14,905 nucleotides of DNA from a virus (taxonomy: Duplodnaviria > Heunggongvirae > Uroviricota > Caudoviricetes): the IMG/VR virus record IMGVR_UViG_641522650_000010; one strand, written 5' to 3'. The position numbers were made by a program, and so were the translations under genes. Below, piece after piece: positions 7,421 through 7,670 of this stretch. The number at the start of each line of letters is the position of its first letter. The stretch's first letter is position 1. The notes beneath the pieces are model-generated. The model was not told the DNA's origin and did not search any database. It saw nothing but the letters and a program-made list of their open reading frames with translations.

Positions 7421-7497
7421 TGGCGCGTTCTACTGTATTCGAACCAGTGACCGATTGCTTAGAAGGCAATTGCTCTGTCCGGCTGAGCTAACAACGC
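7421..7497 (-). tRNA. tRNA-Arg, anticodon UCU (argO-like, as in lambdoid/Stx phages)
   Basis: Manual fold of the reverse complement: acceptor gcgttgt/agaacgc (6 of 7 pairs), D-arm gctc...gagc, anticodon stem attgc/gcaat with loop cTTCTAa, T-loop ttcgaat, encoded CCA. One mismatch at the T-stem closing pair. Confidence 0.7.
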
Positions 7498-7510
7498 AGG
7501 ATACAGATAA

Positions 7511-7587
7511 TGAACCGCCTTCGGGGACCCGAACTCCGCGCAACCAGCTTCGAAGGCTGGCGCTCTTTCCTGATGAGCTAATGGCGG
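7511..7587 (-). tRNA. tRNA-Arg-like, anticodon UCG by manual reading; non-canonical features, possibly degenerate
   Basis: Manual fold: acceptor ccgccat/aaggcgg (6 of 7), D-arm gctc...gagc, anticodon stem ccagc/gctgg with loop cTTCGaa, T-loop ttcgggt (G in place of the conserved A58), 3' end TCA rather than CCA. Confidence 0.5.
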
Positions 7588-7594
7588 TATGTGA

Positions 7595-7670
7595 TGGTGG
7601 CCCTTGCTGGATTTGAACCAGCGACCTGGCGATTATGAGTCGCTCGCTCTCACCACTGAGCTAAAGGGCC
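7595..7670 (-). tRNA. tRNA-Ile2 (anticodon CAU, lysidine type; ileX/ileZ-like); tRNA-Met cannot be excluded from the anticodon alone
   Basis: Manual fold: perfect acceptor ggccctt/aagggcc, D-arm gctc agtggtga gagc, anticodon loop cTCATAa, T-arm gctgg ttcaaat ccagc, encoded CCA; closely resembles E. coli ileX as I recall it. Confidence 0.8.

Follow-up and report, generated by a model that had tools for sequence, protein, structure and literature searches.

The tRNA genes of the locus

The window, meaning the whole stretch of DNA analyzed here, comprises 14,905 nucleotides (nt) of the IMG/VR virus record IMGVR_UViG_641522650_000010 (Caudoviricetes). ARAGORN, applied to the whole window, found three transfer RNA (tRNA) genes, all on the minus strand, which fill exactly positions 7421–7670 (Table 1). 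An earlier sequence-only reading had folded this trio as Ile2 (CAU), Arg (UCG), and Arg (UCU) without stating the strand; ARAGORN returned the same anticodons, and no anticodon other than UCG was found for the middle gene, where confirmation had been thought necessary. The trio is the annotated ileZ-argN-argO cassette of 933W-type prophages, those of Shiga toxin (Stx) phages and related lambdoid phages, and is already known. Its middle member, argN, is present as a degenerate allele, and the origin and spread of this allele are the main subject of the following sections.

The Rfam tRNA model (RF00005, gathering score 29) assigned 72.5 bits to ileZ, 43.4 bits to argN, and 53.4 bits to argO, with E-values from 1.5e-14 to 1.5e-6, and these values exclude chance for the three calls. 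Annotations made by the Prokaryotic Genome Annotation Pipeline (PGAP) on identical sequences served as a proxy for tRNAscan-SE, which is run inside PGAP. The boundaries of argN vary slightly among methods: the Rfam register is given in Table 1, ARAGORN places the gene at 7588–7512, and PGAP uses the equivalent of 7588–7513 on the identical E. coli allele. In all argN alleles an A at position -1 (7588 in the window) is able to pair with the discriminator U73 at 7514. Both ARAGORN and PGAP move the 5' boundary to 7588 in the damaged argN and keep the standard register in intact alleles.

A possible sigma-70 promoter read by hand has its -10 element about 10 nt upstream of ileZ and matches the consensus at 8 of 12 positions. 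A consensus scan returned no minus-strand promoter at its threshold, and this candidate scores under it. A "pS tRNA promoter" has been mentioned for O157 Stx2 phages (PMC2858043).

Table 1. Features of the window, with the tRNA trio and its flanking signals listed first
Feature	Position	Strand	Remarks
ileZ, tRNA-Ile2 type, anticodon CAU at 7637-7635	7595..7670	-	ARAGORN, Rfam; CCA end encoded; intact
argN, tRNA-Arg, anticodon UCG at 7553-7551	7511..7587	-	Rfam register; degenerate allele
argO, tRNA-Arg, anticodon UCU at 7463-7461	7421..7497	-	ARAGORN, Rfam; CCA end encoded; two broken pairs
Possible sigma-70 promoter: TTGCAG 7708-7703, 17-nt spacer, TATTAT 7685-7680	7680..7708	-	Hand-read candidate
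Intrinsic-terminator-like hairpin, GGCTCGC-TTTT-GCGGGCT + T8	7381..7406	-	Directly 3' of argO
Antiterminator Q gene	9333..9728	-	Pfam Phage_antitermQ PF06530, 1.6e-52
Terminator-like hairpin + T run, candidate tR' of the late operon	9244..9264	-	About 70 nt past the Q stop codon
Small open reading frame, 96 amino acids	9210-8920	-	Between Q and the methylase gene
Terminator-like hairpin + T run	8916..8933	-	After the 96-amino-acid open reading frame
N6/N4 DNA methylase gene	7720..8769	-	Pfam PF01555, 1.4e-43; directly upstream of the tRNA trio
STnc100-family small RNA, full-length match	7141..7345	-	Rfam 139.5 bits (gathering score 47)
DUF1737 gene	between the STnc100 small RNA and the esterase gene	-	After the STnc100 small RNA
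NanS-like esterase gene	4957..6651	-	After the DUF1737 gene
IS66-family orfA/orfB/transposase	1-2389	+	Insertion sequence element
IS3-family orfB	2492-3310	+	Insertion sequence element
IS3-family element	3507-4780	-	Insertion sequence element
IS3-family orfB	14252-14905	-	Insertion sequence element

Relation to the cassettes of Stx and other lambdoid phages

A 401-nt query matched 289 phage records, mostly Stx2 phages, at 80–95% identity, and the features annotated under the matches are ileZ, argN, and argO. Identity was 91–93% over at least 80% of the query in 272 phage records. In phage Stx2a_1447 (AP012536.1), ileZ, argN, and argO lie between a methylase gene and stx2A. The counterpart proposed by the sequence-only reading, ileZ/argN/argO of 933W-type phages, is therefore the right one by homology, as aligned to Stx2a_1447, and by annotation.

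The window shares with the 933W-type cassette the three genes, their order, their anticodons, and a site that follows Q and a DNA methylase gene, with 100% identity in ileZ. The trio had been placed downstream of Q from the sequence alone; the Pfam match to Q bears this out, with the trio 1.66 kb downstream and the methylase gene in between. Unlike in Stx phages, the trio is not followed by a stx operon; a terminator, an STnc100-type small RNA (sRNA), DUF1737, and a NanS-like esterase are found there instead. stx is absent from many non-Stx prophages too, and the trio has the late-region location of the cassette, which in 933W-type prophages precedes stx, nanS-p, and the lysis genes. In the ileZ-argN spacer (7594/7595), the window is without the "AT" dinucleotide of Stx2a_1447 (CCACC--ATCAC vs CCACCATATCAC).

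Other lambdoid cassettes share with the window the leading Ile2-type CAU tRNA and the idea of rare-codon supply, but their later members differ. These are Ile2-Arg(UCU)-Thr(UGU)-Gly(UCC) or Ile2-Lys(UUU)-Thr-Gly, and they include no UCG tRNA. Such Ile2-led alternatives were observed at eight genome loci of S. flexneri and E. coli (L214, L224, L229, L230, L248, L252, L281, and L289), and at another locus (L290) one tRNA has the anticodon ATT and is called Asn. Most hits of a genome scan with the 21-mer of the ileZ anticodon arm were tRNA-Ile2 genes native to unrelated phyla; the usable loci numbered only about 16, all from Enterobacterales, and did not include that of the window.

In the literature, full-text searches with the three gene names brought up incidental mentions and nothing else of relevance, and the tRNAs are unmentioned in a comparative Stx-phage paper. 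The incidental mentions include, in PMC2858043, a 2-bp indel and a single-nucleotide polymorphism in the first tRNA-Arg, and, in PMC13641118, a pseudo-tRNA of stx2i prophages. Since Stx-phage annotations already include the cassette and hundreds of RefSeq genomes list the argN allele as tRNA-Arg, the locus itself has little discovery value.

Structure of the argN allele

In the minus-strand reading and the Rfam alignment, the acceptor stem of argN pairs C1–U7 (7587–7581) with A66–G72 (7521–7515). The D loop is AUCAGGAAA, with A20, and the anticodon loop is CUUCGAA. The T stem is CGGAG/CCCCG, and the T loop is UUCGGGU, which places G58 at 7529. Four defects of this gene had been listed by the sequence-only reading, and all of them are present in the sequence and the Rfam alignment. 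These are G58, the T-stem mismatch A52(7535)•C62(7525), the acceptor mismatch A6(7582)•A67(7520), and, after the discriminator U73 (7514), the trinucleotide UCA (7513–7511) replacing CCA.

The consequences differ with the feature considered. By score, argN behaves as a canonical tRNA, its bit score lying above the gathering score and ARAGORN calling tRNA-Arg(tcg). The two mismatches leave the canonical 7/4/5/5-bp stems incompletely paired, whereas intact alleles have no mismatch. G58 departs from the conserved T-loop motif T54-Psi55-C56-R57-A58, in which T54 and A58 form a reverse-Hoogsteen pair. Among 88 distinct baseline tRNAs from unrelated genomes, 87 have A58, and the sole G58 belongs to another argN copy of the same haplotype. 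A 3' CCA, as encoded by the chromosomal tRNA genes of E. coli, is missing from the window allele and present both in its sister alleles and in the intact allele of the phage.

Alignment of argN with its Stx2a_1447 counterpart showed eight differences, namely two in the D loop, C44U, G52A, A58G, C60U, U67A, and C74U. When argN and argO are both compared with Stx2a_1447, each change located in a stem breaks its pair, and none is compensated. The Rfam score of argN is accordingly to be read against the 55.9 bits of the intact phage allele, and its cloverleaf energy is -20.0 kcal/mol vs -28 to -31 kcal/mol for intact alleles. Only this relative loss of energy was used, as intact ileZ and argO also miss the cloverleaf as their minimum-free-energy fold. 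Relative to intact homologues, argN therefore displays the uncompensated loss of conserved positions and pairs that marks a decaying tRNA gene.

The sister strain L327 (CP026795.1) has a 1-nt deletion in a CCCC run of the 3' strand of the argN T stem (about window position 7526). It may be one more lesion or a sequencing error in the homopolymer.

Damage in argO and conservation of ileZ

The outer two tRNAs had been described as near-canonical, which holds for ileZ and not for argO, where two broken pairs were missed. The first mismatch of argO, G53(7444)•A61(7436), disrupts the near-universal G53-C61 pair, and the second is G6(7492)•G67(7430). Against Stx2a_1447 there are only two differences, C61A and C67G, and both are pair-breaking. 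The Rfam score is 53.4 bits in the window vs 70.1 bits in the intact phage allele, and the cloverleaf energy is -15.6 vs -22.0 kcal/mol. Across 19 argO alleles, 99.2% of the cells (one stem pair in one allele) are paired, and one pair underwent a compensatory swap from C-G to G-C. The window allele accounts for two of the only three unpaired cells, and argO in the window is thus an outlier inside a constrained gene.

No differences separate ileZ from its Stx2a_1447 counterpart, and both copies score 72.5 bits in Rfam. Of the 76 bases of ileZ, 68 agree with E. coli K-12 ileX, and the CAU anticodon loop and the pairs C4-G69 and C5-G68, which are TilS determinants, are kept. Identical copies of ileZ are named tRNA-Ile by PGAP. 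The match to ileX, the retention of both pairs, and the PGAP naming together justify the label Ile2 for ileZ. The eight substitutions by which the two genes differ include one compensated pair (U6-A67 vs C6-G67). An A27•C43 mismatch (7644/7628) occurs at the top of the anticodon stem of ileZ, where K-12 ileX has G27•U43; the Stx-phage copy shows this mismatch too, which makes it a trait of the family and no sign of decay.

Diversity and loss across the family

Two samples were drawn from IMG/VR. The first was anchored on the argN anticodon arm and contained 113 contigs with 81 unique sequences. It yielded 11 ileZ, 33 argN, and 23 argO alleles, argN being the most diverse even though the search fixed 20 nt of this gene. 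The second sample, of 73 loci, was anchored on the upstream methylase protein and is unbiased toward the tRNAs. All 73 of these loci have ileZ, and 51 have the full trio.

Loss of argN is frequent in the methylase-anchored sample. The gene is chimeric and no longer read as a tRNA by ARAGORN in 12 loci, and 12–15 of the 73 are without recognizable argN. The chimeric form keeps the acceptor stem and the T arm (T loop GGCGGGT), and its D/anticodon region is swapped for unrelated sequence (…GCTTATCAGGAAGAGCAGACGACACGATAACAGGGTTGTTGGTG…). For argO, truncation was found in seven loci, and the gene is truncated or absent in about 9–11; a few loci have other tRNAs instead.

Nucleotide diversity over the 51 full-trio loci is 0.002 for ileZ, 0.012 for argO, and 0.055 for argN, and it reaches 0.10–0.17 in the sp2 spacer and flanking sequence. 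The argN value is 26 times that of ileZ. Among 34 argN alleles, no compensatory double change was found, and the stem changes comprise six that break a pair and four that keep a wobble pair, a split close to that expected of unconstrained transitions in a helix. The universally conserved positions G18, T54, T55, and A58 are changed in various argN alleles. Both its rate of change and its repeated wrecking or loss are those of a decaying gene. As judged from these alleles, argN is the weakly constrained member of the cassette, subject to repeated decay and to purifying selection much weaker than that acting on ileZ and argO.

Distribution of the argN haplotype

The changes A52, G58, and A67 are linked in argN, and the haplotype that they form was found in 27 of the 73 methylase-anchored loci. 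It is a widespread allele and not a private lesion, a point missed by the sequence-only reading. Eight of the 27 loci have the UCA form, and the damaged argO is linked to it in six of these eight. Intact argO occurs at 18 of 19 CCA-form loci vs two of eight UCA-form loci. G58 was also seen alone on otherwise perfect argN alleles.

Complete E. coli genomes contain roughly 10,000 copies of the cassette. An exact 91-mer with UCA is present in about 28 complete E. coli records, including O104:H4 strains, and in the O104:H4 record checked (L317) the 250-nt trio is wholly identical to that of the window. Exact copies of the CCA form were found in 232 complete E. coli records, among them that of the type strain ATCC 11775. 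The ATCC 11775 copy belongs to an almost complete lambdoid prophage at ompW and differs from the window argN only at C74. More generally, E. coli non-Stx lambdoid prophages such as those of ATCC 11775 and O104:H4 have an argN identical or nearly identical to that of the window, and most of them keep CCA. Altogether, complete E. coli genomes with the haplotype number at least 260, roughly 5% of the total; Shigella has it too, and PGAP calls the haplotype tRNA-Arg, not pseudogene. None of 264 argN-bearing phage-isolate records has an argN at least 95% identical to that of the window; this collection is dominated by Stx phages, which makes the contrast between isolates and chromosomes only suggestive.

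A sequencing or assembly artefact was considered as a source of the unusual argN, UCA being one base away from CCA, and can practically be dismissed, as the exact 250-nt trio was found in seven independent assemblies of related strains, in three IMG/VR contigs, and in O104:H4 genomes.

Decay, altered function, or a new role

The intact cassette would provide tRNAs for codons seldom used by the host and enriched in phage genes, as judged from the anticodons and established tRNA biology. ileZ would decode AUA once TilS has turned C34 into lysidine, argO would decode AGA and possibly AGG, and argN would decode CGA and CGG. Transcription probably starts from the small promoter upstream of ileZ, from Q-antiterminated late transcription, or from both, and would stop at the hairpin with T8 behind argO. 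The remaining phage open reading frames (ORFs) of the window contain, per 1000 codons, 7.6 AGA, 4.2 AGG, 7.2 CGA, and 6.1 ATA. The Arg codon figures are two- to three-fold over E. coli averages. A role in rare-codon supply fits these counts, and it also fits the enrichment of AGA and ATA reported for prophage genes (bioRxiv 10.64898/2026.09.09.750475).

The alleles compared above suggest that the window most likely contains this known cassette with an argN under relaxed selection, non-functional or strongly hypomorphic, and a damaged argO. On this reading it is ordinary gene decay, not a new kind of tRNA. The window argN has the linked, uncompensated lesions A52•C62, G58, and A6•A67 and the further change C74U, which removes the encoded CCA. 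On the basis of established tRNA biology, the loss of the T54-A58 pair together with two stem mismatches should impair folding, processing, and use by EF-Tu or the ribosome. The sequence-only reading had left it between a decaying tRNA gene and a functional variant, and the comparative evidence favors decay, as the lesions are uncompensated and argN is under the weakest constraint in the trio and is wrecked in sister prophages.

Several observations weigh against decay. ARAGORN, Rfam, and PGAP all call the argN allele tRNA-Arg, and PGAP sets no pseudogene flag. No lesion lies in the D arm or the anticodon arm, or at A20 or C35. In E. coli, the identity elements of arginyl-tRNA synthetase (ArgRS) are A20, C35, and U36 or G36; this set is complete in argN (A20, C35, and G36), and A20 and the anticodon UCG are invariant in all 34 alleles. 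An encoded CCA is no absolute requirement in E. coli, where RNase BN/Z and the CCA-adding enzyme mature the CCA-less tRNAs of phage T4. argN is about half as diverse as the flanking DNA, which means that the gene is still under some constraint. Finally, the haplotype is so widespread, with 27 of 73 loci and 232 CCA-form plus about 28 UCA-form records, that it must be at least tolerated.

A rival reading is that the A52/G58/A67 allele is a functional variant that is processed, charged by ArgRS, and able to read CGA and CGG, with its irregular T arm and acceptor tolerated and its UCA end repaired by RNase BN/Z and the CCA-adding enzyme. Acceptance by three gene finders or pipelines speaks for such a variant, as does the near or complete absence of variation among alleles in the anticodon arm, the D arm, G18G19, A20, and C35. 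The haplotype is also frequent and sits in different prophage backgrounds, some of them nearly intact, and G58 can stand alone on an otherwise perfect allele. We nevertheless regard a functional variant as unlikely. Three lesions are uncompensated, one of them deprives T54 of an A58 partner that 87 of the 88 baseline tRNAs have, and the cloverleaf is 8–11 kcal/mol weaker. Compensatory evolution is seen nowhere in the 34 argN alleles, the lineage keeps gathering lesions (C74U, the 1-nt deletion of the sister strain, and the argO changes), and sister prophages have dispensed with argN altogether. The UCA end alone would not be fatal; U74 would, from established knowledge, weaken the contact of C74 with G2252 of 23S rRNA in the P site unless the end is rebuilt.

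A re-purposed RNA has also been considered. A58G and U67A create a 5-bp hairpin, UUCGG/CCGAA, between tRNA positions 54–58 and 63–67, and such an element might have a non-tRNA role, for example as a processing spacer for ileZ and argO or as a stable tRNA-like fragment. The predicted minimum-free-energy fold of the window argN uses this hairpin, at -27.0 kcal/mol vs -20.0 kcal/mol for the cloverleaf, and alignment columns 59:64 (tRNA positions 58:63) co-vary, with G-C in 13 alleles and A-U in nine. The energy argument is weak because intact ileZ and argO are also not recovered as cloverleaves. Pairing in the alternative helix extends to only 74.7% of the cells, 11 alleles are unpaired at the co-varying position, and linkage within a small number of haplotypes would yield such co-variation. 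We know of no function that needs such an element. A re-purposed RNA is therefore very improbable, and the alternative hairpin is most likely a linkage effect without meaning.

Selective maintenance of the A52/G58/A67 argN as an RNA, whether as a tRNA-Arg(UCG) working without the T54-A58 pair or as a UUCGG/CCGAA-hairpin element serving as a processing signal, fragment source, or decoy, is likewise a decidedly doubtful proposition.

Decay of argN bears on how such loci are counted and on what the cassette is for. Tallies of tRNA copy number and codon adaptation in Shigella and E. coli may overstate the decoding of CGA and AGA, because pipelines count this argN and the damaged argO as functional. 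The strong conservation of ileZ and the near dispensability of argN suggest that the decoding of AUA, rather than CGA, is what these phages or their hosts need.

The surrounding prophage remnant

The host of the cassette is a 9-kb prophage remnant with insertion sequence (IS) elements on both flanks. The lysis and structural genes expected past the esterase gene are gone, and elements of the IS3 and IS66 families are found there instead. In related records, just a 44-amino-acid DUF1378 remnant is left between the IS copies. Over 13,050 bp, the window agrees at 100% identity with CP001063.1, which we take to be Shigella boydii CDC 3083-94. In the assemblies of sister strains, the Dam, KilA-N, Q, and esterase genes are fragmented. 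The element in the window is a decaying prophage remnant.

The STnc100 sRNA of the window has its own terminator hairpin at 7171–7152. It is flanked by the tRNA cassette on one side and by the DUF1737 and esterase genes on the other, which is the place of stxAB in Stx phages. At this spot in E. coli, the sole PGAP annotation is an opposite-strand pseudogene, a partial "hypothetical protein".

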